Shown one piece after another: positions 5,896 through 39,665 of a DNA stretch of 42,350 bases. Source of the stretch: a virus (Duplodnaviria > Heunggongvirae > Uroviricota > Caudoviricetes); IMG/VR virus record IMGVR_UViG_2636415673_000001, positions 1 to 42,350 of that record; one strand, 5' to 3'. Both the position numbers and the translations under genes were made by a program. Position 1 is the first letter of the stretch. Every line of letters begins with the position of its first letter. Under the pieces are notes generated by a model. It had not been told where the DNA came from and searched no databases. It worked only from the letters and a program-made list of their open reading frames with translations.

Positions 5896-5918
5896 AGCCG
5901 GTTCACTCCGGCTTTTTG
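5896..5918 (+). terminator. Intrinsic terminator after 5710..5889
   Basis: agccgg-ttcact-ccggct hairpin followed by TTTTT. Confidence 0.7.
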
Positions 5919-6268: not shown

Positions 6269-6298
6269 GGTATCCTGCGTAAAACTAAGGAGGTTGGT

Positions 6299-6793
6299 GT
6301 GTCTGATTCTATGAGTTACGCTGTGCTAGTTGCCGCAACTCTATTTCTGGGGATAGGGTTGCAGATTGCGTGGTTCTTTTTTTCTAGTTTTATTAAACGT
6401 AAAAGAATTGAATCAAGGATATCTGAGATTTCTATTGCTATAGGGAAAAATGCTGAAAATCCAGAGAATGAGGCCTGCGCACTGAATTACCTTAAAGAAA
6501 AGTTTTCCCCTGAAAAATTTGAAAACAGAATTACTGATGCTCTTGGATTGGTAATATCAGTAATTCATATGCCACTAAGTTTACTGATAACAGTGTGGTA
6601 CTTCGCCATGATCGCCGGAAGAATATTTGGTTTCATGAATATAGATCCTGTAGTTCTTTGGGTTCCAATGATACTGCAATTGTTGTTAAGCGTTGCTATC
6701 TTTATTTTTTCTGTTTTTATAAAAATTGTCTTTGGAAGATACCCCGGAGAAGCGAAGGGATTTAATAAAGAATTCATAAAAACTATAAAATAA
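6299..6793 (+). CDS. Polytopic inner-membrane protein, putative SieA-like superinfection exclusion protein
   Basis: AAGGAGG RBS 5 nt before GTG 6299 (alternative ATG 6311); several TM helices; AT-rich; sits between gp16 and tailspike where P22 carries sieA/immI. Confidence 0.45.
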
Positions 6794-6815
6794 ATGCCGT
6801 CCCTGGCTTACAGTG

Positions 6816-8657
6816 CTACTGCCGGGTAGCTTCGTTAACTAAGAGCGGGCGCACGGCAGTAGCCGCCTGATTTAGCGCTCTTTCATAGGCTGGTGTTCCT
6901 GCTTTGGTGTTTGCCAAACGTAAGAGAGCATTCCTTGCTGCTTTTGACTCATACAAGCGCATCATTGCACCGAAACCAGCCTCAAGCCCCATTGATACGC
7001 CAAGAGTCGCAGTTGCGCCAATCGTCCTTATCCTGTTGGCTTGCGATTGCCCCGTCTGAGTTACTACATTTGCGGTGTCTGACCTTGCTGTTTGCTGTAG
7101 AACTTCATGAAGAGCATCAAGCTCTTTCATGTGCTTTCCAGAAAAAATAGTGTTGTAAATTTCACCGCCTGACTGAGATTTCAGCTTATTAACTTCAGTG
7201 ATGAACTTGGCTGGAGAGTCACCTGCCTTTTCCGCTATTTTGCTGACGTAAGCTGCACGCATAGCATCTTTCCCTTTATCATCCAATGCGCTCCAGATTC
7301 GTTTCACGTCAGATGGTTTTCTACTTAATACAACGGTATTTATAAGTTCAGGACTGGCTTCACTGCTTGCCTTGTTGAGCTTGTTAGCAATGTTTTTATT
7401 AAGCACCTTATTATAAACGTTTGCATAATCGGAATTTGCTTTAAGGTATTTTGCTGCGTCTGATGCACCTAGGTTTTTAGCAACTGCGTTACGAAGGTCT
7501 TTTGACATTGCATTCTCTACCATATTGGTAGCTGCTTTTGCCTGGTTGGGGAAGACCATAGCATCTCCCTGAACATTAGATCTAAATGCTGTTCTGTGCT
7601 GACGCAAGAGATCAAACGTAACATCCAAATCAGTTGCAGGGTTTGCTAATTCTTCACGTAGGTTACGCAAGGATGTAAGCAGGCTTTGATTAGCAGACGT
7701 CCCAAGCCGTTCCTGTCTTGCGATCGCTGTATTCAGAGCATTCATGGTGTTTGTGGTATCAACTGCGGCATTACCCATTTTATTGGTGACGTCATTGATA
7801 ACAGCGCCAGCGGCATCCTTCCGCCCCCTTAACGTGGTGATCAGAGATTTCACCACATCATCAGGGTTGTACTCACCAAAACGGTCAAAATAATTGCTTA
7901 CCAGCTTACTACGCGTTGCATATTGCTCCGCTCTCTTTGAGCCTGTCCCGAGCAAAGCCCCCTCGGCATCCTGAGTAAGGCCGCGAGTGAAAGCATTTTT
8001 CGGCGGGATAACATCAGATGTCATTGGTGTCACGCCCATCGATTCTGATGTGGCAATTTTCTTCGCCACTTCTGGCGCAATATCACCTTTTATAGCCGTT
8101 ATTCCACGCCCTATTCCCTTTGCTGCTGCGGAAAGAACCCCCTGAGCGGCAAGGTTAACTCCGGCATTTTTGGCTGCATTTTGTGCGAAATCGCCTTTCT
8201 GATTTGCGGCCTCTGCCAGTGATCCAATAGCCATGCTTCCTGCCGTTCCAACTCCTGGAACTAAATACCCACCAATTGTTTCACCGGCTTGCGCGTAGGG
8301 GTCTGTCGGTCTGTCTACTGGACGATAAACATCATCCAAAACCTTGGGTCCACCAAGCCCCTGACTGATTGCATTAATCAGGCTTGCGCCGCCCTGCAAT
8401 ACGTCAAATGGTATGTTTACCAGACCACGACCTGCCTGTTCTGCAATTTGCCCTGCACTTTGACCACCAGTGAGCCAATCGCCAGCTTGTTGCATCAATG
8501 AAGGTTCTTCACGTGCTGGTTCATTATTGGCCTGATTAACTGTTTGTTGCTGAACAGCCTGACCAGCAAAATACTCATCAATGGCGGTGCCAATATCTTC
8601 CGTGCTCGTACCATCAGGGAAGGTAAATGTCTTACCGTTTGCAGTTACTTTCATCAT
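6816..8657 (-). CDS. Ejection (internal virion) protein gp16
   Basis: 613 aa; matches P22 gp16 in size and order (after gp20). Confidence 0.85.
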
Positions 8658-10120
8658 TCCACCGTAAATTGAATGCCTGATTTTGAGGTATATGATCCGG
8701 ATTGACTCTGCTGCTGTTGGGTATTTGTCGGTTGTTGGCTATTGCTCTGTTGTTGACTATTTGCAGCACTTGAAACCACCAAAGCATCATAAACGCGACC
8801 AGACTGACCACGTAATGAGTTATATTGGCCCTGCATTTTCCGCATTTTTGTTTCAGTAGCAGCCTTGGAATCACCGGGCTGAGGCAGGTACATTTTGGAA
8901 TACTCCTGCATCTCTGGCAGAGTAATTGCTGCACCTGTTTCTGGGCGCAAAATTGCATACAAGGCGTCTCTCGCATTTACCATATATTGCTGCTCAGCTG
9001 GTGATAGGCTTAAATTTGCAATAGTCCCATCACCAAGAGAGCGATTTATTAATGCAACTCGCTTAGGGTCAATGCTTTTACTAAGCTGATTCATTGAGTC
9101 CATTGAATCTTTTAATCGCAAAGCAAATCCTGCCGCCTTCTTGGAACCCTCATTAGCCTTATCTATGATGCTTTGCGCTTGTGGCAAGCTAATTGGTTTA
9201 ATGCCATCACCAGATATAGGTTGGTTTAGTTTTCCGGCTTCCTCGCTGCCATCGGTGTAATACTTAGTTACAGAGCCATCAGGATTGGTTTCAACCTTAA
9301 GTAATTTCTTAGCATTGGGATTAATTCCTGCCGCTGCCGCAAATGCCGCCGCCCCCTCTGGATCCGCCTTTAACATTTGCGCGTACTGATTGTAATTCTG
9401 CATTGCGGCTGTTGGTGCATATGCTGACGTTAACGCATTTGCTCGGCTAATATCCTGCCCTCTCGCCTGAAGTGCTTCGCCAGCCTGATTGCTGCGGATT
9501 GTCTCTGCCAGTCTGCCTCTGTCAATCTCACGACCAGCCATCTTGTCCTGAACATTGAAGTAATCAATCGGACCAAGAGCAGCCATTCCGAGGTGATCAA
9601 CAAACTCACCAAATCCTGAAGGATTCTGCTGATACATCTGAGCAACGTTGTTAGGGTCAACGCCGACGCGCGCCAGTTCCTTGGCGTTGTTTTGCAGCCA
9701 TGATTGCATTGCTTCTGGAGACGAGGCCGCAAGGCGTGCGCCAGCTGCTAAGGTGCCGATAGAATTACGCTGCTCTTCATCAATGAATCCCATGCCTTTA
9801 CGAACGGATTCAATCTGGTCTGGATATTGAGTAGCCAACTGACGCAAAGCACCGCGATCACCAGACGCATAAGCATTAGCGTATGCCTGCTGAAATTCTT
9901 TCTGCCGCTGAGCCTGCTTTTCCTGCTGAAACACCCCCGCAATACCTGAAAGTCCTTGCAAAGCAGTCAGCCCAACATTGTTAGCGCCTGAACGCTCAAT
10001 ATCATTGTTCTGCCTGATAAGCTGAAGCGTATTGCCGATGTCATTTACGCTCGGAGCGTTTGAGTTGACGCCGCCGATACCAGCCAACAATCCGCCATTT
10101 GATCCTTGCCAAGTAGCCAT
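8654..10120 (-). CDS. Ejection protein gp20
   Basis: 488 aa; P22 gp20-like sequence and position. Confidence 0.85.
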
Positions 10121-10129
10121 GATTACCCC

Positions 10130-10822
10130 TTAAAACAACGAACCAAGCAATCCGATACCAGCACCAATGCCAGCGCCCCAAGGTGTTGATGTTCCCAAAA
10201 GGCTGGCAAGACCTGCACCGGCAATCGCACCGGACGTTCCGCCGCTAATTGCTGTCTGAAGACTTGATGGTTTGTTGGCATTAGCAGCGGCAAGAGCTGC
10301 GCTTTGCTGTGCAATGCTGCTCATGTTGTTGGCGTACGTCTGCCCGGCGTTTGCCTGACCTTGCAGAGCACCAAGCCCAACGTTTGCCAGATTGTTGTAA
10401 TTGCTCATCTGGTTTGATAACCAAGACTGACCGAGAGTCGGCGCGATCGTAGCCAGTTGATTGCTTGTGGCTGTCGAACCAAGTCCCCCCGTCGCCTCCG
10501 CAGCAGCAAGATTCTGGTAGCGAGCCTGACCTGCAAGGTCTTTATACTGCTGAGAGTTGTAATACTGATTAAGTGCCTGCCCCTGTCCTTCTAAACTGGA
10601 AAGATTCTGAAGCTGGTTAACATACTGCTCCGCAAGCGGCGTGAACGGAGCAAGGTTTTTCATGATCGTCTGCCACTGCTGATTTTGCAGGTCTGCGGCA
10701 TACTTCTGAGCTTCTGCGGCATACTTTGCGCTTTTATCAGAACTGCCACCTTTCCCGCCTTTTTCAGGGCAATAAGGTTCCTCGCCGCGCAGTTTTCTGC
10801 CCAGCTTAAATGCATATAACAT
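10130..10822 (-). CDS. Ejection protein gp7
   Basis: 230 aa; N-terminus MLYAFKLGRKLRGEEP...KGGKGGSSDKSAKYAAEAQK matches P22 gp7. Confidence 0.85.
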   Translation of the reverse strand: MLYAFKLGRKLRGEEPYCPEKGGKGGSSDKSAKYAAEAQKYAADLQNQQWQTIMKNLAPFTPLAEQYVNQLQNLSSLEGQGQALNQYYNSQQYKDLAGQARYQNLAAAEATGGLGSTATSNQLATIAPTLGQSWLSNQMSNYNNLANVGLGALQGQANAGQTYANNMSSIAQQSAALAAANANKPSSLQTAISGGTSGAIAGAGLASLLGTSTPWGAGIGAGIGLLGSLF

Positions 10823-10824
10823 GG

Positions 10825-11283
10825 CTATCTCCCGTGATTCAGGAATTCGATTAGTTCTTCGCGTGTAGCACTGTAAAATGTCACGTCATCCACGCCTTTG
10901 AAGTATTTCTTGATGGTTCCTACACGATTAAGGCCAATCATTGCGCAGTACATCTGCCCGTGGCGGAATTTGCGCGCAGCGAACGATGTGACACACTGAA
11001 CAGTGGTGTTAGTCAGAATGTATCTCCAGAACGCCAGCCCGATTTCCTTGCTGAATCCACGAACCTCTGGCAGGTACATGGCGTGGCAATCGAATGTCAG
11101 CGGCTGAATCTCCTGATAGTAAACAATTCCGCCGAACTGCCCGTGCACGTTCACCTCAAAGTAACGGCATTCAGGCTTGTAGTCGTATCCATCACCGTTG
11201 TTGCTCCCGGCGATAATGTCAGGGTGATTTCCCACGGCTTCTATCAGGTCGATGTTTCGCGTTGGTTTGAACTGAATCATCAC
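10825..11283 (-). CDS. gp14 head/ejection-associated protein
   Basis: 152 aa in the P22 gene-14 position between gp26 and gp7. Confidence 0.7.
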
Positions 11284-12128
11284 TGCTCCGCGATTATCTT
11301 GATGGTTGTGGCAGTAAACGCCGCACCATTCGACTGAATGGTTAACGTACTGCCATTTGTGGCAAGAAAGCCGTCTTTATCCACGCTGAAGAATGTAGCT
11401 AACAGGATGTTGTCGGTTGTTGTCGCCGCATTACGACTGCTGACCAGTGTGTCAGGAACAGAGCCGGAAAAGGTTAGCTGCATTGATCTGTTGGTGGTTC
11501 CGCTGGGCCACGTCCCGACAATCGACAGCTTGAAGAACAAGGTTTTGTTCTCGTTGAACACAACCATCTTGTTGTTAACGGTGTCGAAGAATGGTGCCAA
11601 CGTGCCGGATGACGGCGTGAGCGTTTTCAGCATGCTAACAAGGTTGGTCGGCGCTGTCGGGATGGTTACAGATACGCCAGAGTAAACAACCTCTGACTTC
11701 TTGCGAGTAGTGGCATACTCCAGAGCATCGATGCGCGTTTCATGGTCTGAAACCTGCGATTCCAGCGACTGAACTCTGGTATCAAGCGACGCAATATCGC
11801 TTTCATTCTGAGCGATTCGCGTTTCATGTTCCTGAAGAGTTGATTCTGCCTGGCTGATTCGCTCCTCATGATTAACAAGCGTTGCTTCCGCAGCAGAAAT
11901 TCGCTGCTCATGGTCAGCGAGAATCACATCCTGCTCATCGTTCCTGACCTGTGCATCATAAGCGCCCTGTCCGGCCTCGTTGGCCTTGTTAGCCACGTTA
12001 CCAACATCAGTACCCTGTGCGATAACGTAAAGCAGATACGACTGCGAGAAGATATTGCGTGGAAGGACTGATGTGTCGAGCCGCGTCGCCTGAACAATAA
12101 CAGGTGTATTGAGATTCGAATCCGCCAT
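11280..12128 (-). CDS. Tail needle gp26 with divergent C-terminal region (possible knob)
   Basis: N-terminal ~60 aa match P22 gp26 (MAD..LN.PV..QATRLD...[14 protein letters not shown]); heptad-rich middle; longer, different C-terminus. Confidence 0.85.
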
Positions 12129-13546
12129 TACTCAATCCTTATCTGAGCGCCAGACAGAGTGACAGGTGACTTCGTGATAACGCGCAATTTGAAGCCGACA
12201 TTTTTCCTGATGCGCCCTACTCGCTTCCACAAAACACGTTTGTCATAAACGAACGGTTCATTCTGCTCAATCATCTGCTCACGTCCGTAATTGATTCCGT
12301 CAGTGGTTGCAGAGAGAAAAAGGCGGTCGGCGTACTGCGCAACGCCAGTTGACGATTCAACCTCAAAGTCAAACACCCTGGCGTTATCAGCTTTGAACAA
12401 CGGAGTAAACAGCAGGTGTTCCTGTTGCTTGTCGTACTGGCTGCTGATGTCGAACTGCAATTTCCCGGTCACGGATTCCAGCTTATCGCCGCACGTTATC
12501 TGATTGCCTTCGTAAATGAAGTCGATAGCGCGGTACACATCGTCATACAGGCCTGTTTTCAGTACACACCATTGCGGACCATTGGCGCTTGAAGATGCGT
12601 CGTACACGAGAACATGGCGCGGAAGATGGATAATCAGCAGCTCATGCGCATCAAATCGCAGAGACTCCATCACACCATCAGCCAGTTCATCAGCAGTGTA
12701 GGAGCGGAGAATTTTCTCAATGCTCGCGCTGGCGATTGGTGATACCTGACCGGATCCGATGATGTACACAGACGGCGCACCTGTTGCCGGATTGCTGATG
12801 AACGCATACGAATCAGCAAACGGCGTTTTGCAGTAGGTTCCGGCAATACCTTTCTGCACCATCAGCGATGGCTGTGCGACATACAAAGCGGCACCAACGG
12901 TGGTTGCACCAGTCAGGGAAAAATACTCAATCGTCGATGAACCAAAGCAGACGATGAAGTCTCGCCATGTGCCGATACCGATGATGCCGTCCGGCTGCGA
13001 TTCTGCGCGATATTGTGCACTGTAGCGGTCAGGATGCGATTCGTCTTCAAGGTCAGTGATGAACCATGAATCCGTGCCGTCTTTTGACCACGCATAACGC
13101 CCACGTAAGCGCGTAATGTCGCGGACCGAGCCTAACTCATACTGCGTGAATCCGCTATCAGTAGGCCAGTTTGAGACTGTTTTAACCGTGCCATCATAAC
13201 GATACTCGACCAGTTGACCATTAACGCCTACCGCCTGTGATGTTCGACCGTGCGCCATTGATACGCGACCACTTCCTGCAACATCACCGACTTCACTTTC
13301 GCCCTTATACAACTTGCCACCACACACGCGATAAACAGCACTCTGCGCCATGTTGTACTCGACGCCGCGCGATACGCCGTTCACATCAGAACGTTTGGCA
13401 ATGCCCGGGAATGAGCGAAGATATCCGCTGCTGTTGAGGATTTCTTTGGGTGTAGCCAGCATATTCACTGGAAGATAGTCGATATAGTCGGCGTTTCGAA
13501 AGTCTTTGCCGACACCTTTCATAAGCGGAAGTTGCTGAATCGGCAT
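12128..13546 (-). CDS. Tail hub protein gp10
   Basis: 472 aa, near-colinear with remembered P22 gp10. Confidence 0.9.
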
Positions 13547-14047
13547 TTATTCGCTCCCGTTATCGCAAGGTTCCTTCCGGTGGAAGTAATTCCAACCGTT
13601 CCACTTCGCCAACTGGTTACCGCTACCAACAGGCATACGGTTTGGATAACCGGACTTACATTTAGCGGCTTTTGCTCTGTCCATTGCAGACAGTTTGACG
13701 AGTCGCTCTTTCCCGTATCTGGCAGTGGTTATAAGTTTTGCTGACGATTCCAGCGCATAATCCGGAGCAATGCGGCAGGCAAGGTTGAAAATGACGGCAT
13801 TGATAGCGTTATTTGATAAACCGTGCTCATCGCCCGGATCCGGAGCGACATCTGCATCAGCAAAAATGTAGCCAACGTTGATACCAGGTGACACATCACC
13901 GCCAAGCCATTCAGCCATCATCATTTCAAGGTCGTTGACGCCGTCTTCCATAGACTGCGGTTCGACATCGGTTAACGTGGCATTTGATGCAACACCGAGC
14001 TTACGTAATGCTGCAAGGACTAAATCACCCTTCGTTGTCAGGTTCAT
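13547..14047 (-). CDS. Head completion / tail accessory protein gp4
   Basis: P22 gp4-like ([16 protein letters not shown]...[12 protein letters not shown]); start placed at internal Met of the longer track ORF. Confidence 0.8.
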
Positions 14048-14255
14048 CTGCTGCCGCCTTAGGTTTTCGACCAGGCTTTTTACGCTGTTTTTCTTCTGGC
14101 TCTGGCTCTGCAACATCCTTCAAAAGCTCATCAGGATGTGAAAACCAACCAGCATCCAGATATTCCTGAAGCTCTTCGGCTTTCACGATTTCAAAGTCGT
14201 AGCCAACTCCTTTCCACTTCTTCATGTCGCCATGACGAAAGATCATGTGTGTCAT
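14025..14255 (-). CDS. Small acidic/basic-tailed hypothetical protein between coat and gp4
   Basis: 76 aa from ATG with GGAG RBS; C-terminal Lys/Pro-rich tail. Confidence 0.45.
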
Positions 14256-14299
14256 GCTTGTCTCCAGATAAAAAAGGGAGCCGAAGCTCCCTCTGGTTA

Positions 14300-15595
14300 T
14301 CACGCAGTCTGGTTAGGCAGACCAACACCAATTGCCTCTGGTCGTACAGCACATGCTGAATACCACACAGCAATACGGCACTTACCAGACAGAGTGTTGA
14401 TATCACCCTGCGTTGCGAAGATGCCGTTAACACCAATGCCAGGAATGCTGAAGGAAGACGTTTTCATGCCAGCAAACAGTTCATGGGTTACCGGGATCGG
14501 CTGAGATAGCAGACGGATTGAGTCATCAGCCCAGAACACGTTAGCGGTGGTTGTTGCCACGTTCAGAACGTTTACCGTAGTGGTATCAGCAAGAGAGGTG
14601 TTTACGTTAGCGTAAGCCTTCTCTTCTTTTGTCAGTGACGCGTCATCCAGTGCAATCGGCTTCGGCGTGATTTCGATGTGAGTACCATCGATCACACGGG
14701 TGATTGAGAAAGTAGCATCATCAGTTAGCACGTTCTTCGCCATCTGAGACAGGAATTTCACACCAGTGAAACTGATTTTGTCGCCGCGCTTAAATCCGGT
14801 GGTGGAGGATACGGTCACCGTTGCAACACGGTTGTCGACGTTCTCTTTGTTACCATCGGTATCAAGGGTGTATGCCTGCGGCTTAAACTTCTGCGCACCA
14901 GAAACAGTTACACCAGTAGCGGTTGACTTGGTAACTGCCGGAAGTTTCGGTGAGCGAAGAATTTCATCAAAGCCAGCAATCTGACGCTGAATAGTACCGT
15001 TGCGATACGCGTCTTCAGTAACGCGACCAAAGATGTCACCATCTACCAGGTTGCGGCCTGCTTTACGGTAATCGTCAGGGTTCAGGAAGTAACTGATGCC
15101 CATATCGCGGTTGAGTTCGCGGGAGAACATCAGGCGCTCTGCATCAGACACAAAATCCCAGCCAGACAGGCCAGTAGATGGACCAATTGCGCGGGTATCG
15201 TGAACAACAAGCGAGCCCATTTCAGTTGCCTGTTTGGCAATCGCTGACTCAATGTTATTCGCCAGTTTTTTGGCAGATGCCTGGATGCGGCGACGGTAAG
15301 AACGCTCATCACGCAGGTCATCTGCACGAAGCTCGAAGAAATCGTTATCCGGATCGCCCATGTTGCATTTCACGGAGAGTTCCAGAATCCCGGTTGCGTT
15401 GCCAGTTAAATCCCAGCCAGTCTGGGTTGGCGCTTCCTGCTCAACAGGCATCCACACGGTGTTGCTTGAACGCTGCATGGATTCTGCCGGAGGGGTGTAT
15501 TTTGTCACTTTTGACGCCATTGGCGTCAGATTCTGGACGGTTTCGATGATTTCATCCAGAGCATACGTGACCAGTTGACCTTCATTTAATGCCAT
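14300..15595 (-). CDS. Major coat protein gp5
   Basis: 431 aa; strong match to remembered P22 coat (MALNEGQ...GVGLPGQTA). Confidence 0.95.
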
Positions 15596-16506
15596 TATCG
15601 AATTCCTTTATTCAGTTGCGCCTTGAGCTTGCGGTACGTCTCTACATCCCCTTTGTTTGCTGCCGCCTCCATCTGCTTTTCAATCGCAGAGATATTTGCA
15701 GCAACAGCGTGTCCCTGAATGGGTTCATCAGGTAACGGGGCTTCTGAAACAGGCTTGGCTCGAGGCTTGAGAGTTAAACGTTCTGACAGTCGAGTGAGTT
15801 CAATCAGCGCGGATTGCCCGTCCATCGCCAGCAACTGGCGTGTTTTCTCAGGATTAGCACCAAGGTGATACATGAGAGCGGCGGATTTCTCCGGGAAGAG
15901 GCGCATGATGTCGGCACCGACTGCTGGCGGCACCAGTTGCATGAATGCATCCTCTTTCTCCTGATAGTCAGGGATATTGAGCTTTTCCGCTGCGTCGTAG
16001 TGCTTACGGGCTGCCTCGACGTATTGCGCTGATTGCTGGGTGAACTCCTGAGTTTTGCGACCCTGCTCGGCGACAGCCTGGCTTCGTGCGTCCATAGCCT
16101 TGATCTGCCATTCACTGTTTGCCTGCTGGAAGGCAGCCAGTGCGCGGCTCTGGTCATAGTCGTACTTAGCCAGTGCGTCTTCGGAAAGATAATCGTTAGG
16201 GTCTGGTTGTTTTGGTAACTCAGGGTTCACCCGCAGGTGCTCCGGCAACTCTCCACGCTTAACCGCTTCCATCTGCTGCTCAAGCTCACGCTGGCGTTTG
16301 CGTTCGATGCGGCGACGGGCAAATTCAGCATTAGTTGCCGGGTCTTGTTTTGGTTTCTCATCGTCTTTCAGGACAATCTCGAAGCCTTCTTCCTGACCTG
16401 CGTTGTCGTTGGCATTATCGACAACTAAGCCATCAGCAGATGCCGCTGCATGATTGCCGGGCAGGGTTAATTCTTCAGAAGCCTGAATGTCGGTGGTTTG
16501 GTCCAT
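15595..16506 (-). CDS. Scaffolding protein gp8
   Basis: 303 aa; P22 gp8-like throughout. Confidence 0.9.
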
Positions 16507-16519
16507 GATTAACTCTCTC

Positions 16520-18685
16520 TTATTGAGGTGTCTCGGCTACTCCGCCGGAGGGGATTTGAACTTGACGCATAAGATTCGCGAAATCCATGCGTTGTGAATG
16601 AGTCTGGTCTGCATCTTTAAGAAGCAGCTCAGCGTTAGCACGAGCATCTTTGCTGCGCTGTTGCTGGAATTGACCTACGAGCTTGAGGTACTCACGCAGT
16701 TCTGCCTGCTTGTCGAGGTCCATATTGTTGAAGATTTCTGCAATCTTCGCGGCGTTGAGTTGGTTTTGGGCTTCAACCTTGGCGGCTTCAACCTGAATCT
16801 GCGCCTGTTGGTTCTCTGCCTTGAGCAATTCAGCCTGACCTTGCAGAAGGATACCCTGCGCCTGAATTTGCTCTGCTGATGGCTGCTGCGGCTGCTGTTG
16901 AGCCTGCTGTACCATCTCCATCTCTTCAGGTGTTTCTGGTTTCTTCAGCCCCATCATCACCAGTTGCTTGTTCGCGTACTCCCGCATCATCTCTACGCCT
17001 TTACCGTCAAGCAGTGTGAAGTATTGCAGCATCAGCATCTGGAACTCTGGAGTACCTTGCGGAACCTTGGTGAGCAACTCCTGAATCTCTGCACGGTTCT
17101 GTTCCTTCATACTCTGGAAGGATGGTCCGACGTCTGTATAGCACTCATAGCGACCGCGAATGTCGTTGAGTGTGACCACATTGCCAGACTGGTAATCTAC
17201 AACTTGCGCATAGAGTTGAACGTCTTTCTCGCTTCCATCTTCAAGTGTCAGCGTTACATGACGAGGAACGTCATAAATATCGTTGACCATTGAGGCATAA
17301 ATCTCGCCATCACGTCGCATTGCGGTAGCCAGGTTATCCTGAAACACGTATGTCTCAAGGTCCGCCCGCATGTTCAGTTGATTGACGGTATCGAAAGCGA
17401 CCTGAGAGTTTGCCGCCTGCGCATCCACGCCAAGACTAGCCACCTCTTTCACTGCGTTGGTGGCAGCCTCAAGCATGTAAGCGTTGGCTTGCGGCACTTC
17501 AGGGTTTTCCATGTAGGAGATTGGACCAATCGGCAGGTCGTTACCGTTTTCATCGGTCCTGTTCTGCAGATAGTACGGATAGTCATCATTTCCACCGTAC
17601 ATGTATTCGTAGCCTTCGATTTGCTCAGGGAAGAAGGTCGGTTTCTTCTTCGGTGAACGAGCAACAATATCGGCGTTGAACGACATGATCATGTTACGAA
17701 GGCGTTGACCGTCTTTCGTCAGCCTTACCACTCCTTCGTAGCACTCCTTGTCACCAGCGAATGACCATTCGCCATACACTGGAACGATTGGAATATGCTC
17801 TCCGGCTATCTTCTCGCGGTCTTTCAGTATCTGCGTGCAGGTGATGATCGACTTATACACACGCCGACGCTTCACCTTGCGCTCTGCTACCTTAATGAAT
17901 CCACGATTAGCCAGGTCGTCGATGACGTCTTTGATATCCTGCTGGTAATAGCTGACCGGCTCACCTGTCAGCGGGTCGCGGTAGATGAAGACTTTCTCCT
18001 TCTTCTCTTCTACCTCGTAATACTCAGCGACGTAGACGACATCATTCGATACCCACGGAAACAGCCATGTGTCGTTCGGATTCTGGAAAGATGGCAGGGT
18101 GTCAGGATCAATACCGTAATCCTCTGCGAACTCTTTCCAGCCATTGCGCGACAAGGCGTTAATCACCGTGCAGTGCTTAGCGTCGCTCTTATCCATCTGC
18201 TTGCTGTTGGCGTCCCATATGACGTGTGAGCAGGCTTCATGGATTGGAAGGCGTCGGATTACCTGATTGTTGCTTGTTGGGTCGTTGTCTTCGTACTGGG
18301 TGACCAGACGCCATGCACCAACGCCGGACTCTATCTGCTCACGAACTCCAACGTTAACGGCAATCTTTGCCGTGTTATGGCGCATATCAGTACGATACAT
18401 CCCCATCAGCACATCGGCAGCATCAGGATTAGCGCCGTCTTTGGGTCGGAAGAGAACGTCGATAGGGTTCCGGCGCATCTCTGCGACCAGTTTCCTGACC
18501 ACCGGGCGGACAACATCGAATTGTCCGCGATATTGCAGGGTGGTGTAGTTTGATAGCCAGTCATCCCATTGCGACACTCGGCTAAAATACAGGTCATTTG
18601 TCGCCTCGGTTCTGGCTTCATCGCTCGCCATCCAGTCTGCGTCAAACTTACACAGAATGGAATTGAGTCTGTTTTCGTCGGCCAT
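16520..18685 (-). CDS. Portal protein gp1
   Basis: 721 aa; P22 portal-like N-terminus and glutamine-rich C-terminal barrel segment. Confidence 0.95.
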
Positions 18686-20185
18686 TTAAGTTCTCCGTGC
18701 GATGGGCCTGATTGGGGCTGGTATCTTTTTCTCTTTTGGTTTTTTGATGTCGCGCATCATTTTTGCGAAGCGGCGCATCATGTATGCATAGCGAACGGCG
18801 GATAGCACGTCGTCGTTAAGCTTGACGATTTTCCCGTTTTCATCACGGTGATAGAGGCGGAACTCCTCAAAGAATGGCTCACAGGTGTTGAATACTTTGA
18901 AGCGACCGTCGAGCATCATGTCTCGCAATTCAGTGATGCCAGGCTCAACAGCATTACCTCCATCAGGCCATGTTGCATGCTCCTGCAACATCATAAAACC
19001 AGCGTCCGCGTACTGCCCTTTAAGCTGCTCACCGCCGCCCTTCTCGTGCTGGTTTCCGTCATGAGGCCATGCGGTTGGCACTTTATGCGCCCATGATTTA
19101 ACAGCTCCCCACGCCTGAACGGCTGTCTTCTCTTTCGCCTTCCACACGCGTGAAACGTAGATTGTGTCTGCGTCCTTATCCCACCAAAGCTGAACCTGCG
19201 CCTGCGGGTGATCCCATCCGAAATCCATCCCGCCAATCACGTAGAAGTGATCAGGACACTCGAACGGCTGACACTTAATAGTCTCTTCCGGTATCTGGAA
19301 GATTCGACCACTACCCATCGTAGGAATACCGCGAGCACGCGCCTCTCTCTCATGCTCAGGATAAGATGCGATGATTTGCTCTTTCTGTTCGTCTGTGTAG
19401 TGCTCAGCGTCGTAGATGGTCATGTTGACCACTTTCTGCGACTTGCTGGGATTCTTCAGGAACTTGGTAACAACGTCAGACATCCCCATCAGCGGGGTAA
19501 ACGTCAGAATTGAGAATTGACCGTATTTGTTGGTACGGGTAAGACCTTCGCCATAAATGCTGTATGGTGGCTCTTCGTCAAACCACACGCCGTGGATTGT
19601 GTCACCCTGCCAGCGAGCACGGCCTTGCGAGTATGGTTTGAAGTAGCAGATTGAAATGCCATCTTCAACGCCATCAGCCGTGTGATGCTTAACCAGAAGA
19701 TGATCAACAAGGTTCGGAAAGAAAGGAGACTTCTTCCAGCTAATGATGTCCTCTTTCGGTATTGAACCGTATCCCGGTTCATCATTCTCTTCAATACGAC
19801 CGCACAGGATGCGTTGAGTCGTTTTGGTTACCGTCTCGTTTGTCTCGCCGCCAATCCAGAAGACAACAGGCTCATAGAAACGCTTACCTTTCCACTCACC
19901 GCCATATTTACCATCAGCAGGATAGCCTTTTGTGCCCGGATAACGCCCTGTAAGGTGAAACGCGACTTCAGCAGCACCAGTAAATGACTTACCAAGCTGG
20001 TTACCAGCCATAAAACATCGCTCTGGGTAGTCATGTCCGGCGTCGATGAACTCACGCTGTTTGCTGTATGGCGTAAATTCATATAGCAGGTGTGTGTTCC
20101 GGTAGTTCTCTTCTTCTTCGAGTAGCTCGAGCAACTCGATTTGCTCTTCGTCGCTCAGGTTATCAAGAATCGCGTCCAGTTCCAC
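18686..20185 (-). CDS. Terminase large subunit gp2
   Basis: 499 aa, P22 TerL-like; overlaps 3' end of TerS. Confidence 0.95.
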
Positions 20186-20651
20186 GGTTGAATAGCTCCT
20201 TGATACGAGAGCGTCGCTTATCGCGATCTCCCTTATCAGGTGTCACGTCTTCAACTTGCGACTGCTCTTTGAGGCCCAAATCACGGGCGATGATGTTAGC
20301 GTTGAGAAGGTCAGCGGCTGCGCCAGAGAATTTCTGATCGTAGATGACCTGCTCTGCTCGCGTAACGACTTCAGATAAATCTTCTCTCAGGCGATATGTG
20401 CGCCATGTTTCAAGCGTCACATCAATGAACAGAGTGAGGCCGGTAATGGTCATCGCTCGCATCTTGGCGATAGGTTCTTGTATCACTTCACCCTGATACG
20501 AGAACGCCTTCATCTCCCATAGCGGGTTAGCTTCCACCCACTCGAAGTATTCACAACAAGCAGCCCACAGCGCCTCAGGCGATTCGAATTTAGGGTTTCG
20601 CCCATGACTACTGCGGGCCTCCCAAAATCGGTTGCCCTTTGGTGCTGCCAT
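20163..20651 (-). CDS. Terminase small subunit gp3
   Basis: 162 aa matching P22 gp3; contains pac sequence. Confidence 0.95.
20361..20384 (-). other. pac: pac site (headful packaging initiation)
   Basis: Minus-strand gaagatttatctgaagtcgttacg inside the TerS gene, matching the P22 pac consensus as remembered. Confidence 0.7.
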
Positions 20652-20745
20652 ATTGATTATTTCCCTTCTGCTTGCTTATCCCATTCATCGCGGAATTTGG
20701 ATGGGTTGTCGAAGCCCTGAGAGCCTGAACAAACTTTGATTACCA

Positions 20746-24909: not shown

Positions 24910-25533
24910 CTAACGTGTGACCGCATTCAAAATGTTGTCTGCGATTGACTCTTCTTTGTGGCATTGCACCACCAGAGCGTCATACAGCGGCTTAACAGTG
25001 CGTGACCAGGTGGGTTGAGTAAGGTTGGGGATTAGCATCGTTACAGCGCGATATGCGGCGCTTGCAGGCATTCTTGAATAGCCGACGCCTTTGCATCTTC
25101 CGCACTCTTTCTCAACAACTCTCCCCCACTGCTCTGTTTTTGCTATATCAACCGCACGGCCTGTACCGTGACAATCTCTGCATCTTGCGCCCGGCGTCGC
25201 GGCACTACGGCAATAATCCGCATAAGCGAATGTTGCGAGCACTTGCAGTACCTTTGCCTTAGTATTTCCTTCGAGCTTTGCCACACCACGGTATTTCCCC
25301 GATACCTTGTGTGCAAATTGCATCAGATAGTTGATAGCCTTTTGTTTGTCGTTCTGGCTGAGTTCATGCTTACCGCAGAATGCAGCCATTCCGAATCCGG
25401 CTTGTGATTGTGCCATCCCCATAGCAGCCATCACATCAGTACCGGAAAGAGAGTCAGAAGCCGTGGCCCGTGGTGAGTCGCTCATCATCGGGCTTTTTGG
25501 CGAATGAAATTTAGCTACGCTTTCGAGTCTCAT
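24910..25533 (-). CDS. Q: Late antiterminator Q
   Basis: 207 aa essentially identical to remembered lambda Q. Confidence 0.95.
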   Translation of the reverse strand: MRLESVAKFHSPKSPMMSDSPRATASDSLSGTDVMAAMGMAQSQAGFGMAAFCGKHELSQNDKQKAINYLMQFAHKVSGKYRGVAKLEGNTKAKVLQVLATFAYADYCRSAATPGARCRDCHGTGRAVDIAKTEQWGRVVEKECGRCKGVGYSRMPASAAYRAVTMLIPNLTQPTWSRTVKPLYDALVVQCHKEESIADNILNAVTR

Positions 25534-30298: not shown

Positions 30299-31159
30299 TC
30301 ACCTGTCGAAAAACACGTAGCCAGTTTTCGATACGGTGATTGCGGATGATGGTTTGGATTGTGGTTGAATGGTTTCTGGCTTTTCGTCGTTCCAGCGTTG
30401 ACCGTTCAGGTAGCTCGATGGTAACAACCTGTCGAATCCGAACTGCTTACCATTCCTGCATGCGATGTCTTCTGCCAACATCGTGGCAAACTCGCTTGCC
30501 GTACCCCTGGTAGTTTTACGCCATTCCCTGAACTGTGTTCTGAATGCCGAAGCTGCGTTTTTCTTCCCGGCTTTCCGCATGCCTGCACACCAGAATATTT
30601 CCTCGAATGCCTTGTCGGTTTCTTCGTGACGGTCAGGTGATTTTTCACACTCCGTCCGAACACTTTCGGACATAGTGTTTTTATTATTTCTTTTTTCTTT
30701 TGTAATAGTTTCTTTTGTGTGTCCCTGTTTTGGTGACAGCGCTGTCACCGTTTTGGTGACACTTTTTGTCACCAATGCAGTGACATTATCACCAGAGTAG
30801 TGACACCCTTCGATTTGCCATTCCTCGATGTTCTTGTTAGGCCCGATTTGCTGGCCTTCGCGAAGGATAACCTTCATCGCGATAAGCTCATTCTTGGCCT
30901 TGTTTACCTTCTGTCTTGGCAGCCTGGTAATTTGAGCTAACTGACTATCAGAGATGCGATCCATCTTTTTACCGTAGCCGTATGTTTTACGGCATATGGC
31001 GTGGGCAACCTTGCTCTGATTTTTCGTTAAATCTGCGCCGATAAGCTCTTCATACAGGGCATTTGCAAGACGGGTATAACCATCTTCAACTTCTGCCACA
31101 CGACGCTCCACAGGCCGTTGTGAAGGCCTTAAATGTGTTACGGTTGCAAGATTACTCAT
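30299..31159 (-). CDS. Replication initiator, O / P22 gp18-like
   Basis: 286 aa; N-terminal similarity to lambda O and P22 gp18; AAGGAG RBS; origin repeats inside gene. Confidence 0.85.
30676..30808. repeat. ori: Phage replication origin: AT-rich tract plus GTGAC-type iterons including an 18-bp perfect palindrome
   Basis: AT-rich 30676..30720, then ggtgacagcgctgtcacc (30732..30749) and about five more gtgaca/tgtcacc/tatcacc repeats at ~10-bp spacing, within the O-like gene. Confidence 0.7.
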
Positions 31160-31298
31160 GACCTTTCTCCTTCTGCATCAGCTTCACTTTTTCCAACTCA
31201 GCCCGGAATCGACCAGGCTGCTTGAAGCTGGACAGGAAGCGATCACGTAGTATGTGTTTGTGAATTTTGTCCTGGTAAGGACTGAGTTGTTTTGTCAT
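31152..31298 (-). CDS. Small hypothetical protein between cII and O
   Basis: 48 aa; ACAGGAG RBS; stop overlaps O-like start; translated by hand with no internal stop. Confidence 0.4.
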
Positions 31299-31332
31299 AA
31301 TTACTCCTGTGGATTGATCCAGTCTTTCTACA

Positions 31333-31614
31333 TCAGGCCTCGAAGAATTCGCCGTTCTTCGGGGCTTTTTCTTTTGTCAGGTAATTGGCAAGCCGCTTAG
31401 TCAATTCAGCCATTTCATCGTCTTCGATTCCGTATTCCAGAACAGCAAGCATCATGCTTACCTGCGAGAAGAAACCATTCTTCCATCGGCTTACCTGATA
31501 TTCAGGAACCCCCATTGCTCGAGCGAATGTCTTCTGCCCCATCAGTGCCAGTTTGTTCAGCAAGGCTGACTCGATGCGAGCCGCTTTCTTGCTTTTAGTT
31601 GCAATAGTACCCAT
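31333..31614 (-). CDS. cII: CII-like transcriptional activator
   Basis: 93 aa with lambda CII-like core (RIESALLNK...QISRWK...LAVLE); AAGGAA RBS. Confidence 0.8.
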
Positions 31615-31690
31615 AGATAATTTCCTTAATGATTAGATAGAGTTGGCTTCGCAAAGAAACGCAAAACCATAGAGATTTGTTTCTGGTAAT

Positions 31691-31722
31691 GCCCTTTTTC
31701 AGGGCGGGGATGTGTAAGAGCG
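31691..31722 (-). promoter_or_regulatory. nutR: nutR (boxA + boxB)
   Basis: Minus-strand boxA cgctctta (31722..31715), 9-nt spacer, boxB gccctgaaaaagggc (31705..31691), as in lambda. Confidence 0.85.
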
Positions 31723-31730
31723 AGAATGTC

Positions 31731-31946
31731 TTAAGCGGCTTTGTGTTCCGGCGGGAACACGTCATCAAGACTGACTTTTGCACCTAACTTGTTTAGGCAC
31801 TCAACAAGAGCACGGCATGTTTTAAGGTCTGGGAAGCGACGACCAGATTCCCAATGTCCGATAGCTCCCTGTGTGCATCCAACTGCCTTAGCAAGTGTTG
31901 TTTGAGAGATATTCAGTGACTCTCGATATTTTCGTAGGTTGCTCAT
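31731..31946 (-). CDS. cro: Cro-like repressor (HTH)
   Basis: 71 aa from internal ATG with GGAGGG RBS; HTH QTTLAKAVGCTQGAIGHWESG; divergent from cI. Confidence 0.8.
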   Translation of the reverse strand: MSNLRKYRESLNISQTTLAKAVGCTQGAIGHWESGRRFPDLKTCRALVECLNKLGAKVSLDDVFPPEHKAA

Positions 31947-32058
31947 ATGCCCTCCATAGTAACCATGAAACAATAATACGATATGTACTTTTAGAATGCA
32001 AACAAAAAAATACATCTTGTGCATGGATGGTTTTAGTACAGAGCGTAATAATAAGGGT
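31947..32058. promoter_or_regulatory. oR / pR / pRM immunity control region
   Basis: 112-bp divergent intergenic region; repeated gtac/tttag-containing imperfect palindromes shared with the pL region; operators not resolved. Confidence 0.6.
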
Positions 32059-32718
32059 ATGAAAATGAAATGGTATGAACTGGCTAGATCCAGAATGAAA
32101 GAACTCGGCATAACTCAAGAGAAGTTAGCTGAAGAGCTTGGTATGACGCAGGGTGGAATTGGTCACTGGTTGCGCGGATCTCGTCATCCATCTCTTGACG
32201 AGATTGGTGTGGTGTTTAAATACCTTGGTATTGATAACGTCTCATTCAACCACGACGGTACATTTTCACCTGTTGGCGAATACTCATCTGCCCCCGTTAA
32301 AAAACAATATGAGTACCCTGTTTTTTCTCATGTTCAGGCCGGGATGTTCTCGCCTGAGCTTAGAACCTTTACCAAAGGTGATGCGGAGAGATGGGTCAGC
32401 ACAACCAAAAAAGCCAGTGATTGTGCGTTCTGGCTTGAAGTTGAAGGTAATTCCATGACCGCGCCAACAGGATCCAAGCCAAGCTTTCCTGACGGGATGT
32501 TAATTCTCGTTGACCCTGAGCAGGCTGTTGAGCCAGGTGATTTCTGCATAGCCAGACTTGGTGGTGACGAGTTTACCTTCAAGAAACTGATCAGGGATAG
32601 CGGTCAGGTGTTCCTACAGCCACTAAACCCGCAATATCCAATGATTCCATGCAATGATAGCTGTTCCGTAGTAGGGAAAGTTATCGCCAGCCAGTGGCCT
32701 GAAGAGACATTTAGTTAA
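32059..32718 (+). CDS. cI: CI repressor: non-lambda N-terminal HTH domain fused to lambda-type S24 autoprotease C-terminal domain
   Basis: C-terminal ~130 aa match lambda cI ([20 protein letters not shown]...), N-terminal ~90 aa do not; start 32059 or 32065. Confidence 0.9.
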
Positions 32719-32749
32719 CAGCCTCACAACTCTAAAACACACAACAATA

Positions 32750-32778
32750 ACCCGACCTTAGCGTCGGGTTTTCTTTTT
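32750..32778 (+). terminator. Intrinsic terminator after cI
   Basis: acccgac-ctta gc-gtcgggt hairpin followed by TTTTCTTTTT. Confidence 0.75.
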
Positions 32779-32819
32779 CCAAAATATAAACCCATTAAAT
32801 ACAAAGCGTTATAAAAAAC

Positions 32820-32890
32820 TAATTATATTTAGAACATTTTGTATTGACTCGATAAAGTACAAATCGTACTATTTAGCCATCAGCAGGACG
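32820..32890 (+). promoter_or_regulatory. pL promoter with oL operators
   Basis: ttgact at 32844..32849, -10-like gtactat ~32867..32873; downstream sequence matches the lambda pL leader into nutL. Confidence 0.65.
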
Positions 32891-32911
32891 TACTAACCAC
32901 CATGAAGGTGA

Positions 32912-32942
32912 CGCTCTTAAAAATTAAGCCCTGAAGAAGGGC
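32912..32942 (+). promoter_or_regulatory. nutL: nutL (boxA + boxB)
   Basis: boxA cgctctta 32912..32919; boxB gccctgaagaagggc 32928..32942, as in lambda nutL. Confidence 0.9.
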
Positions 32943-33052
32943 AGCATTCAAAGCAGAAGGCTTTGAGTAGCGCGAAATGCAGCTGCAAGACAGCAACCGT
33001 GGAGATAAGCATCACGGCGCGTTACTCAAAGCTAACTGACAGGAGAATCCAG

Positions 33053-33379
33053 ATGGATGCACAAACACGCCGCCGCGAACGTCGCGCAGAGAAACAGGCT
33101 CAATGGAAAGCAGCAAATCCCCTGTTGGTTGGGGTAAGCGCAAAACCAGTTAACCGCCCTATTCTCTCGCTGAATCGAAAACCGAAATCACGAGTAGAAA
33201 GCGCACTGAATCCGATAGACCTTACGGTGCTGGCTGAATACCACGAACAGATTGAAAGCAACCTGCAGCGTATTGAGCGCAAAAATCAGCGCACATGGTA
33301 CAGCAAGCCACGCAGTGAAATAGGTGTGACTTGTGTTGGTCGCCAGAAAATGAAATTAGGCAGCAAACCACTTATTTGA
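33053..33379 (+). CDS. N: Antiterminator N
   Basis: 108 aa matching lambda N (MDAQTRRRERRAEKQAQWKAANPLLVGVSAKPVNRP...); AGGAG RBS. Confidence 0.95.
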   Translation: MDAQTRRRERRAEKQAQWKAANPLLVGVSAKPVNRPILSLNRKPKSRVESALNPIDLTVLAEYHEQIESNLQRIERKNQRTWYSKPRSEIGVTCVGRQKMKLGSKPLI

Positions 33380-33387
33380 GGTGAGAT

Positions 33388-33858
33388 ATGACAAAATCAT
33401 GGAGCGTACCTTTTCCTGAATCAGAAACTGAACATGATGGAATGCCTGTTTTCTGGAGATTCCAGGCGACAGTTGAAGAAGATGGGATAAAAATATTCGC
33501 ACTTCAATATATAGCTTTTCATCAGACAGAGCATTATGCATGGTTGGTTCCTGCGCATTGGATTGTTAATTTTAAACCAGCACCAAATCAGTGGTTACAG
33601 GAATGGAAACAAAGGAGAAATAGATATGCAATTAAGAAAGTAGCAAAAAATGCAGAAAGATCTTTTGCATTCCCAACGAAGAAACTTGCCATTGAGAGTT
33701 TATTGCGCCGGAAGAAATACCATTTAATGAGAATCAAACAAGATTTGGCTGTTGTATCAACTCTTGTTGATGGGATGAAGAATATTGATACATCAACACC
33801 AGATATTGAATATAACTTTGGGCACAACCAAGAAACAGAAAATTGGGTATTTTATTAG
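33388..33858 (+). CDS. AT-rich hypothetical protein (moron) immediately downstream of N
   Basis: 156 aa; GAGG RBS; visibly AT-rich codon usage; followed by stem-loop and terminator; no family recognised. Confidence 0.6.
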   Translation: MTKSWSVPFPESETEHDGMPVFWRFQATVEEDGIKIFALQYIAFHQTEHYAWLVPAHWIVNFKPAPNQWLQEWKQRRNRYAIKKVAKNAERSFAFPTKKLAIESLLRRKKYHLMRIKQDLAVVSTLVDGMKNIDTSTPDIEYNFGHNQETENWVFY

Positions 33859-33872
33859 TACGAGTAAGCACT

Positions 33873-33900
33873 GTGTATTCATTCCAACGAGTGAATACAC
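33873..33900 (+). other. Stable stem-loop without U-tract
   Basis: 9-bp stem gtgtattca/tgaatacac with 9-10-nt loop, 15 nt after the moron stop. Confidence 0.4.
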
Positions 33901-33962
33901 GGAGCAATGTCGCTCGTAACTAAACAGGAGCCGACTTGTTCTGATTATTGGAAATCTTCTTT

Positions 33963-33987
33963 GCCCTCCAATGTGAGGGCCTTTTTA
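33963..33987 (+). terminator. Intrinsic terminator (tL1-like)
   Basis: gccctc-caatgt-gagggc hairpin followed by CTTTTTAT. Confidence 0.7.
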
Positions 33988-34052
33988 TATGCATACCAAT
34001 AACGCTTCACTCGAGGCGTTTTCGTTATGCAATCAAACAGAAGGAGCATCCT

Positions 34053-34223
34053 ATGCAACAGTTCGCTATTGCAGGGGCGGCATCGGTTCGCCCTTTCAAC
34101 CCGATTTTATCGGTGCAGCATTCACGAAAAAATATTTTAACCGGAGCAGACTTTAAACAACCTCGCGTTAAGAGCTTGCTGGATCGTCTTGTTGAGTTTC
34201 TGAATCAAAAGGTACAGCCATGA
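34053..34223 (+). CDS. CIII-like small protein (putative FtsH inhibitor)
   Basis: 56 aa; AAGGAG RBS; loose resemblance to lambda CIII (MQ.FAIAG...L.D.L..LNQ); assignment tentative. Confidence 0.4.
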   Translation: MQQFAIAGAASVRPFNPILSVQHSRKNILTGADFKQPRVKSLLDRLVEFLNQKVQP

Positions 34224-34384
34224 AAAAACCAACTTACGAGGAACGGGAAGAAGCCCTGAAAGAGCTTAGAAGAATGGCTTTCGCCAGACGCACTAACTCT
34301 CACAACTGCGGCCCATTTCAGTACTCTGATTTATGCGAGGACATCATTGAGGTAACTCAACTGATTAAGGTCGTTAAGCAATGA
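34220..34384 (+). CDS. Small hypothetical early protein
   Basis: 54 aa; ATGA-coupled to upstream ORF. Confidence 0.4.
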   Translation: MKKPTYEEREEALKELRRMAFARRTNSHNCGPFQYSDLCEDIIEVTQLIKVVKQ

Positions 34385-34539
34385 GCATTGCGGATACATG
34401 GTCAGACGAAGAATTCATTCGTCAGATGAAAGATTTAATCGGTAACGAAGGAGATATTCATGTCACTTGCAACCACAGTGAAGGAGAGCAAGTTACAGAG
34501 ACGCATGTACACACAGAAAGCTCTCTGGTATCGCCATAA
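34381..34539 (+). CDS. Small hypothetical early protein
   Basis: 52 aa; ATGA-coupled. Confidence 0.35.
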   Translation: MSIADTWSDEEFIRQMKDLIGNEGDIHVTCNHSEGEQVTETHVHTESSLVSP

Positions 34540-39639: not shown

Positions 39640-39665
39640 TTGCGTGTAATTGCGGAGACTTTGCG

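Follow-up and report, generated by a model that had tools for sequence, protein, structure and literature searches.

In the Shiga toxin (Stx) phage VT2-Sa, the CI repressor is highly similar to that of bacteriophage lambda in its C-terminal part and shows low similarity in its N-terminal part, according to Fattah et al. 2000 as far as that study is relayed in PMC10742460. The phage is treated as having six 17-bp operators (PMC10742460), and OR1-3 and OL1-3 have been listed for Sakai-type PST1 phages (PMC4587872). The clade I of PMC8951638 includes CI proteins of Stx phages with an overall identity of 61% to lambda CI. The repressor of phage epsilon34 has its closest N-terminal relatives in phages L, VT2-Sa, and Nil2, and a C-terminal domain about 80% identical to that of lambda (PMC2629481). 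Sakai-type repressors are not mentioned in the Koudelka 'hair-trigger' review; the CP-933P region with PaaR2/YdaS (PMC8630535) is a different immunity region and was set aside. Here, we describe an immunity region of the VT2-Sakai kind at positions 31731-32942 of the IMG/VR virus record IMGVR_UViG_2636415673_000001, all 42,350 nucleotides of which were analysed (the window). With a probability of about 0.9, what the region encodes is the lambdoid lysis/lysogeny switch of a P22-like Escherichia coli prophage, complete and functional-looking, with the VT2-Sakai type of immunity. This is not a new immunity type, since the module has been known from VT2-Sakai since 2000 and is widespread in a known configuration. 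Given this earlier description and its frequency in E. coli, the module is real but ordinary.

The assignment to the VT2-Sakai type draws on both regulatory proteins and on the operators. The cI protein is 96-97% identical to the Stx1-Morioka and VT2-Sakai proteins (96.3% over the N-terminal 81 amino acids by tblastn), and Cro is 98.6% identical to the Cro of VT2-Sakai and the Stx1 phage. Thus, the cI N-terminal domain and Cro both exceed the level of about 90% used to predict a shared specificity, and the same six operators are found at equivalent positions. In DNA, the segment from cro through oR to the N-terminal part of cI matches Dewey, 683R2, and phi458 at 97.6-99.3% identity; for VT2-Sakai, Nil2, the Stx1 and Stx2-II phages of Morioka, phage 1717, and the PA series, the figure is 93.3-93.6%. 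With a longer query, the identity is 99.1-99.3% for Louie and 720R6.

The VT2-Sakai group (Nil2, Stx1 and Stx2-II of Morioka V526, 1717, 2851, PA) has the same lambda-type C-terminal domain and the same six 17-bp operators in the same positions. It differs in carrying 1-1.5 kb of extra open reading frames (ORFs) between cI and oL, at the rex position, and a different N and nutL. Its A tract between oR1 and oR2 is A5, with a spacing of 32 bp, as opposed to A7 and 34 bp here. The deposited VT2-Sakai cI (AP000363, locus 3792-4487) has an in-frame stop in the helix-turn-helix (MT*GG), and only a truncated 169-aa cI is annotated. Dewey, Louie, vB_EcoP-720R6, vB_EcoP-683R2, and phi458 are 97.5-99.3% identical across cro-oR-cI-terminator-oL-pL-nutL and have a lambda-type N and nutL. 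In the first four of these the terminator and oL directly follow cI, as they do here, while phi458 has a 1-kb ORF after cI instead. All five have an A tract one base shorter than that of the window, and their cII and replication genes vary between members. Dewey and Louie, which are published podoviruses of K-12 (O16), also share the P22-like virion genes.

The module is frequent in E. coli: 768 of the 5,426 RefSeq complete genomes carry at least 80% of 31723-32890. A 100% match occurs in one genome, that of E. coli LSC52, where the two genes are annotated as 'LexA family protein' and 'helix-turn-helix transcriptional regulator'. At least 119 IMG/VR contigs carry the same immunity subtype; both landmarks were found in 54 of them, and cI is directly followed by oL in 53. 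Of the contigs checked among these, most also have a lambda-type nutL. The exact combination seen in the window is, therefore, a common one. This identifies the immunity group of the prophage as one common to clinically relevant Stx phages and to the K-12-infecting Dewey and Louie.

In window coordinates, the early region is oriented opposite to the lambda map, in the order cII-nutR-cro-oR-cI-terminator-oL3-oL2-oL1/pL-nutL-N-leader hairpin-N (Table 1). The cro and cI genes are divergently transcribed from a 118-bp oR that contains three 17-bp operators. As in other lambdoid switches, this multipartite oR (31974-32050) lies between the divergent repressor and cro genes, overlapping pR (at oR1) and a candidate maintenance promoter, PRM. 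A second operator triplet (oL3/oL2/oL1, 32797-32871) covers pL, with nutL and N downstream. The repressor itself combines a helix-turn-helix with a C-terminal LexA-like S24 domain that has the Ala-Gly site and the Ser/Lys dyad.

Table 1. Features of the early region in window coordinates. Matrix scores refer to a half-site matrix built from the six operators.
Feature	Position	Strand	Description
cII	31333..31614	-	93 aa; Pfam Phage_CII 7.6e-30
candidate PRE -35 region	31589..31602	+	TTGC-N6-TTGC (CII tetrads), inside the cII 5' end, directed toward cI; exact pattern match
nutR	31691..31722	-	boxA CGCTCTTAC (31714-31722), boxB GCCCTGAAAAAGGGC (31691-31705); both identical to lambda
cro	31731..31946	-	71 aa; Pfam HTH_3 1.4e-12
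pR	31973..32001	-	-35 TTGCAT (31996-32001), 17-nt spacer, -10 TATTAT (31973-31978); promoter scan
oR1	31974..31990		TAATACGATATGTACTT; overlaps pR -10 and spacer; score 18.6, second in window; 0 mismatches to ARTAC-N5-GTAYT
oR2	32008..32024		AAATACATCTTGTGCAT; upstream of pR -35, abuts candidate PRM -35; score 13.8, sixth; weakest site
candidate PRM	32024..32051	+	-35 TGGATG (32024-32029), -10 TAATAA (32046-32051); from sequence and geometry only
oR3	32034..32050		TAGTACAGAGCGTAATA; overlaps candidate PRM -10; score 15.5; direct-repeat family with oL3 and oL1
cI	32059..32718	+	219 aa from ATG 32059, 217 aa from ATG 32065; Pfam HTH_3 and Peptidase_S24
intrinsic terminator after cI	32749..32779	+	stem 32749-32770 and T run; terminator scan; fold -12.4 kcal/mol, z -4.4
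oL3	32797..32813		AAATACAAAGCGTTATA; score 14.9; repeat families D1, D2, I2; conserved in VT2-Sakai, 2B8, phi458, Dewey
oL2	32830..32846		TAGAACATTTTGTATTG; overlaps pL -35 by 3 bp; score 15.8; inverted repeats I2, I9; conserved in relatives
pL	32844..32879	+	-35 TTGACT (32844-32849), 17-nt spacer, -10 TACTAT (32867-32872); promoter scan
oL1	32855..32871		AAGTACAAATCGTACTA; between pL -35 and -10; score 20.3, best in window; 0 mismatches; near-perfect palindrome
nutL	32912..32942	+	boxA CGCTCTTAA (32912-32920), boxB GCCCTGAAGAAGGGC (32928-32942); identical to lambda
N-leader hairpin	32959..33033	+	RNA fold -41.4 kcal/mol, z -5.2
N	33053..33379	+	108 aa antiterminator; Pfam N36 1.5e-26

Comparison of the window with lambda by blastn (NC_001416, 34500-39500) separates segments that are clearly shared from segments that are clearly not. 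The 3' part of cI (32308-32712) corresponds to lambda 37637-37233 at 93.8% over 405 nt. The segment 32741-32776 corresponds to lambda 35834-35799, directly downstream of rexB, at 88.9%. The segment 32878-32965 corresponds to lambda 35583-35496 at 97.7% over 88 nt; this last block begins at the pL start and contains nutL. The DNA of N is 93% identical to lambda, and that of cII and nutR only about 66%. In the same comparison, no DNA similarity to lambda was detected over 31723-32307 (cro, oR, and the 5' part of cI) or over 32777-32877 (oL/pL), and a tblastn search with RexA and RexB gave no significant match anywhere in the window. The defining parts of the lambda immunity region, namely the lambda cI N-terminal domain, Cro, and operators and the rexA-rexB pair after cI, are thus not those found here. 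The sequence-only reading had proposed that the cI autoprotease domain and both nut sites read as lambda, that the cI helix-turn-helix domain, cro, and the operators do not, and that rexAB is missing between cI and the terminator and pL. This division is borne out by the alignments, and neither the N-terminal domain nor the operators turned out to be identical to those of lambda. Due to the absence of rexAB, oL and oR are only 822 bp apart; the distance is about 2.4 kb in lambda and about 1.9-2.2 kb in those relatives that have cargo after cI.

The overall architecture is shared with lambda as well, along with the cI cleavage site. The pR and pL hexamers are different. The same earlier reading placed the module on a lambda regulatory chassis, and this description is only partly apt. 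It fits the C-terminal part of cI, the t_imm terminator, the pL start, nutL, N, and the nutR boxes. It does not fit cII, whose protein is 46.7% identical to lambda CII, the replication genes, which are not those of lambda, or the P22-like virion genes.

One boundary with lambda lies within the cI gene. Its N-terminal helix-turn-helix domain and linker extend to about 32307, and the lambda-type cleavage site and S24 domain (Peptidase_S24, Pfam 8.5e-29) follow from 32308. The first 80 or so residues are about 20% identical to lambda cI, and the recognition helix reads TQGGIGHW as opposed to GQSGVGAL in lambda. From YEYPVF to the C terminus, on the other hand, 133 of 136 residues are identical (98%), the three differences being S139C, E217D, and G236S in mature lambda numbering. 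Equivalents of the Ala111-Gly112 cleavage site, Ser149, and Lys192 are all present. The 136 shared codons differ from those of lambda by 23 synonymous and three non-synonymous changes; the C-terminal domain is under purifying selection. The DNA joint with lambda, at 32308, is within the interdomain linker, and the cleavage site is about 10 codons further downstream. The 94% DNA identity of the C-terminal part to lambda is proof of a recent exchange that has its joint in the linker, which is textbook lambdoid mosaicism.

It does not follow that cI is a recent chimera built on the lambda gene. The C1 protein of g341c is a full-length homologue of the cI described here (70% overall, 54% in the N-terminal domain), with a C-terminal domain about 80% identical to that of lambda. 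The epsilon34 and SPN9CC repressors match the cI N-terminal query at 52-54%. Because epsilon34 and g341c already have the same N-terminal family fused to a lambda-family C-terminal domain, the chimera model was rejected, and neither the direction of the exchange nor its recipient can be deduced. The word hybrid, as used in the sequence-only reading, therefore has a meaning only in comparison with lambda. The epsilon34, g341c, and SPN9CC repressors are more diverged throughout and have a different operator consensus, which for epsilon34 is reported as WTACRAWWTGTAT.

RefSeq and phage records begin cI at ATG 32023, which gives a protein of 231 aa. The 12-codon extension involved (32023-32058) overlaps oR2 and oR3. 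In 10 of 117 relatives it contains a TAG stop, which makes a start at 32023 unlikely, and its other variants are all amino-acid-changing. The true start is probably ATG 32059 or ATG 32065, as in the older annotation of phage L c2 (X94331), and the 231-aa database models are probably over-extended at the 5' end.

Cro is about 30% identical to lambda Cro. Its recognition helix, TQGAIGHW, is nearly the same as that of cI in the window. The closest solved chain is 28tn_A (E 2.4e-16). Cro is a small all-helical HTH_3-type paralogue of the cI N-terminal domain, and does not belong to the lambda Cro fold family.

The six 17-mers of oR and oL fit the consensus WARTACR-N3-YGTAYTW; in each of the 12 half-sites, position 5 is A and position 6 is C. 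The occurrence of repeats in oR and oL had been noted from the sequence alone. An unguided repeat search agrees with this, since it recovered five of the six operators as mutual direct or inverted repeats; oR1 and oL1 form an inverted repeat of 90% over 20 nt. The exact pattern TAC-N5-GTA has nine matches in 42 kb, where about four are expected, and three of the nine fall within the 222 bp of oR and oL. With the half-site matrix, the six operators score 13.8-20.3 and are the top six sites of the 42-kb window; the seventh scores 10.5. In VT2-Sakai, 2B8, phi458, and Dewey, too, the top matches are at the six homologous positions, and most of the changes are in the central bases. oR2 is conserved in the relatives and in phage L, and the record of an Stx1 converting phage (AP005153) has 'putative operators' annotated at all three oR sites. 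In the lambda locus, the best match to the matrix scores 11.0 and is not located at a lambda operator.

The run of A residues between the pR -35 and oR2 (32004-32010, within 31998-32013) is variable in length. It comprises seven A in the window; among the IMG/VR contigs of the same immunity subtype (at least 119), it is A6 in 95, A7 in 11, A5 in 8, and A8 in 2. The oR1-oR2 centre spacing therefore varies between 32 and 35 bp. One idea would be that the length of the A5-A8 tract adjusts the phasing of the operators and the stability of lysogens in this group, including the Stx phages.

The promoters are arranged around the operators much as in lambda. Operator 1 lies between the hexamers of both pR and pL, with its centre at about -16, and the centre of oL2 is about -41 from the pL start; oL1 and oL2 have these same positions relative to pL in lambda. 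The pL start is placed at about 32879 by alignment to the lambda pL start, lambda homology beginning at 32878 (lambda 35583). At the pR site, a putative major rightward promoter is annotated in AP005153, and the candidate PRM is equivalent to the 'putative maintenance promoter' of the same record. PRM transcription is predicted to start at about 32058-32059, at the cI ATG, which would give a leaderless cI message. Relative to this predicted start, oR2 would be at about -43, as in lambda, and oR3 at about -17, a lambda-like geometry for activation and autorepression. The terminator begins 30 nt past the cI stop codon and is a homologue of lambda t_imm, with a compensatory G-C to A-T change in the stem.

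The N protein is 91.6% identical to that of lambda, with residues 1-63, including the arginine-rich motif, identical. Since boxA and boxB at both nut sites are those of lambda too, N and its sites have lambda specificity; the nutR spacer differs from lambda at two positions.

In combination, these features suggest how the switch would operate. Dimers of cI would bind the six WARTACR-N3-YGTAYTW operators through the L/VT2-Sa-type helix-turn-helix and repress pR and pL, while the lambda-type C-terminal domain would provide dimerisation and pairwise cooperativity. At oR2, cI would activate PRM as in lambda, and at high cI levels oR3 would shut PRM off. Octamers formed through the C-terminal domain would probably loop oL to oR over 822 bp. 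RecA-stimulated self-cleavage of cI would induce the prophage, as in lambda, Cro would bind the same operators and direct the switch toward lysis, and lambda-specific N acting at nutL and nutR would drive the early operons. On this basis, immunity would be expected to be shared with the VT2-Sakai-type Stx phages, Dewey, Louie, and phi458, and the prophage would be expected to be heteroimmune to lambda, 434, 21, P22, HK97, and 933W. The distinct, non-lambda immunity specificity proposed from the sequence alone is thus the predicted one.

A number of points weigh against the reading of the region as a functional switch with six operators and full heteroimmunity to lambda. The matrix ranking is circular: the six sites it ranks are those on which the matrix was trained. 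The degenerate pattern ARTAC-N5-GTAYT, with up to two mismatches allowed, is not enriched window-wide (52 found against 41 expected), and the statistics for the operators therefore depend on clustering and conservation, next to exact and one-mismatch matches and the unguided repeats. The match of oR2 to the consensus is weak. The oR1-oR2 spacing of 34 bp here, and of 32-35 bp in relatives, differs from the 24 bp of lambda, so that the lambda rules of cooperativity are not simply transferable; the full centre-to-centre spacings in oR are 34 and 26 bp, as compared with 24 and 23 bp in lambda. For exactly the sequence of the window, the six sites are predicted cI operators, and PRM, the cI start, and looping are likewise predictions. 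Finally, a cross-immunity of VT2-Sa with lambda is attributed to Fattah et al. 2000 in PMC10742460; if this report is correct, full heteroimmunity would be too simple a description.

The cross-immunity report raises the question of whether the region might be functionally cross-immune with lambda, through weak mutual recognition of operators or through co-oligomerisation of the C-terminal domains. In gel shifts, lambda CI measurably binds the VT2-Sa operators; however, the apparent dissociation constants are 3.7-6.4 µM on these sites and 0.2-0.35 µM on lambda OL1/OR1 (PMC10742460), a 10- to 25-fold weaker binding. The C-terminal near-identity of the two repressors would allow contact, but their N-terminal domains and recognition helices are different, the operators share no consensus with those of lambda, and mixed dimers would be expected to weaken repression rather than strengthen it. 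The claim of cross-immunity is itself second-hand, and this explanation is considered very unlikely. A related and somewhat less improbable, though still doubtful, proposal is that cI may form mixed dimers, tetramers, or octamers with the lambda-type-domain repressors of co-resident heteroimmune prophages, because a C-terminal domain 98% identical to that of lambda is common to a large population of E. coli prophage repressors. If true, the immunity of such prophages and their thresholds for induction would be coupled or weakened by the mixed oligomers, which could also account for the VT2-Sa/lambda 'cross-immunity' that has been reported. Cross-talk of this kind in polylysogens would also have a bearing on Stx prophage stability.

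A more credible alternative, which we regard as possible but not favoured, is that Salmonella phage L/ST64T has the same specificity or an overlapping one, the region being an E. coli copy of the L immunity group. The Cro proteins are 70% identical (phage L record MW013502), and the only difference between their recognition helices across CTQGAIGH and ESGRR is a W/Y change. The repressor N-terminal domains are homologous, and the c2 recognition helix, TQGAIGHW, is a single G/A change away from that of cI. The operator consensus is shared in oR and oL (TAATACATTTCGTACTA and AAGTACATTTTGTATTG, among others), both have centre spacings of 34 and 26 bp in oR, and phage L has the same -10, TAATAA, 7 nt before the repressor ATG. 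Yet, the N-terminal domains of cI and c2 are only about 54-60% identical, short of the level of about 90% above which the same specificity is expected (PMC2629481), and the individual operators differ in flanking and central bases, which can set the order of affinities. Outside the binding functions, the phages differ further: the c2 C-terminal domain is P22/434-like, overall repressor identity is 47%, and the nut sites and antiterminator are P22-type. The older phage L record, X94331, was not used for this comparison, as the C-terminal two-thirds of its Cro fail to align with the Cro of the window or of the newer record (18/50 identities). Phage L is, nevertheless, the closest classical relative and the one for specificity work; the phages that the sequence-only reading had named for comparison (434, 21, HK022, HK97, P22 c2, and phi80) did not include it, and none of them is the relative. 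The least probable explanation is decay, in which the region would be what is left of a cryptic prophage and would no longer work as a switch. The element is chromosome-borne, as its perfect match in E. coli LSC52 indicates, and the VT2-Sakai record itself has a nonsense codon in cI. Here, however, all ORFs are intact, the ratio of synonymous to non-synonymous changes in the cI C-terminal domain is that given above, and the region has its full set of promoters, operators, terminator, nut sites, and candidate PRE. Moreover, 99% identical regions are found in the plaque-forming isolates Dewey, Louie, phi458, and 720R6. A switch of the VT2-Sakai type, with a specificity of its own with respect to lambda, thus remains the preferred reading.

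A possible derivative of the same type is found in Klebsiella phage phiKp_30 (LC768498, locus 701-1177), which has the same cro and oR, but with just 217 bp between oR1 and an oL1-type site. The greater part of cI appears to be deleted, as would fit a derivative of the VT2-Sakai immunity type that has lost its repressor.

The window as a whole (1-42350) is a mosaic. The virion genes, at about 5100-20700, are P22-like (Lederbergvirus-type) and 95% identical to those of APC_JM3.2, Dewey, and IME10. The early region is a mix of lambda, HK97, mEp043, and Sf101 segments, and replication depends on a 'replication protein' and a toprim primase-helicase in place of lambda O and P. The ORF directly after N (33388-33858, 156 aa) matched no Pfam entry. 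Dewey and E. coli LSC52 have it conserved, in the latter with the annotation 'hypothetical protein'.

The candidate PRE lies at the same position as PRE in lambda, and presumably functions as such. Other exact TTGC-N6-TTGC matches are located at 25233-25246 (+), 39640-39653 (+), and 31651-31664 (-). CII-dependent promoters with paQ and pI as their counterparts might be present at the first two; the third is on the pR-sense strand, between nutR and cII.

An Rfam scan of 30500-34500, with E up to 0.1, matched no family. The N-leader hairpin is shorter than that of lambda and different in sequence, the leader being about 60-90 nt less, with indels in the alignment; the hairpin may be an analogue of the RNase III site. 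Among relatives with a lambda-type nutL, at about 40 nt downstream of oL1, the first base of boxA varies (CGCTCTTAA, GGCTCTTAA, TGCTCTTAA), the window having the lambda form. In contrast, boxB is constant in nearly all common variants among the IMG/VR matches listed, and one variant differs at the last base.

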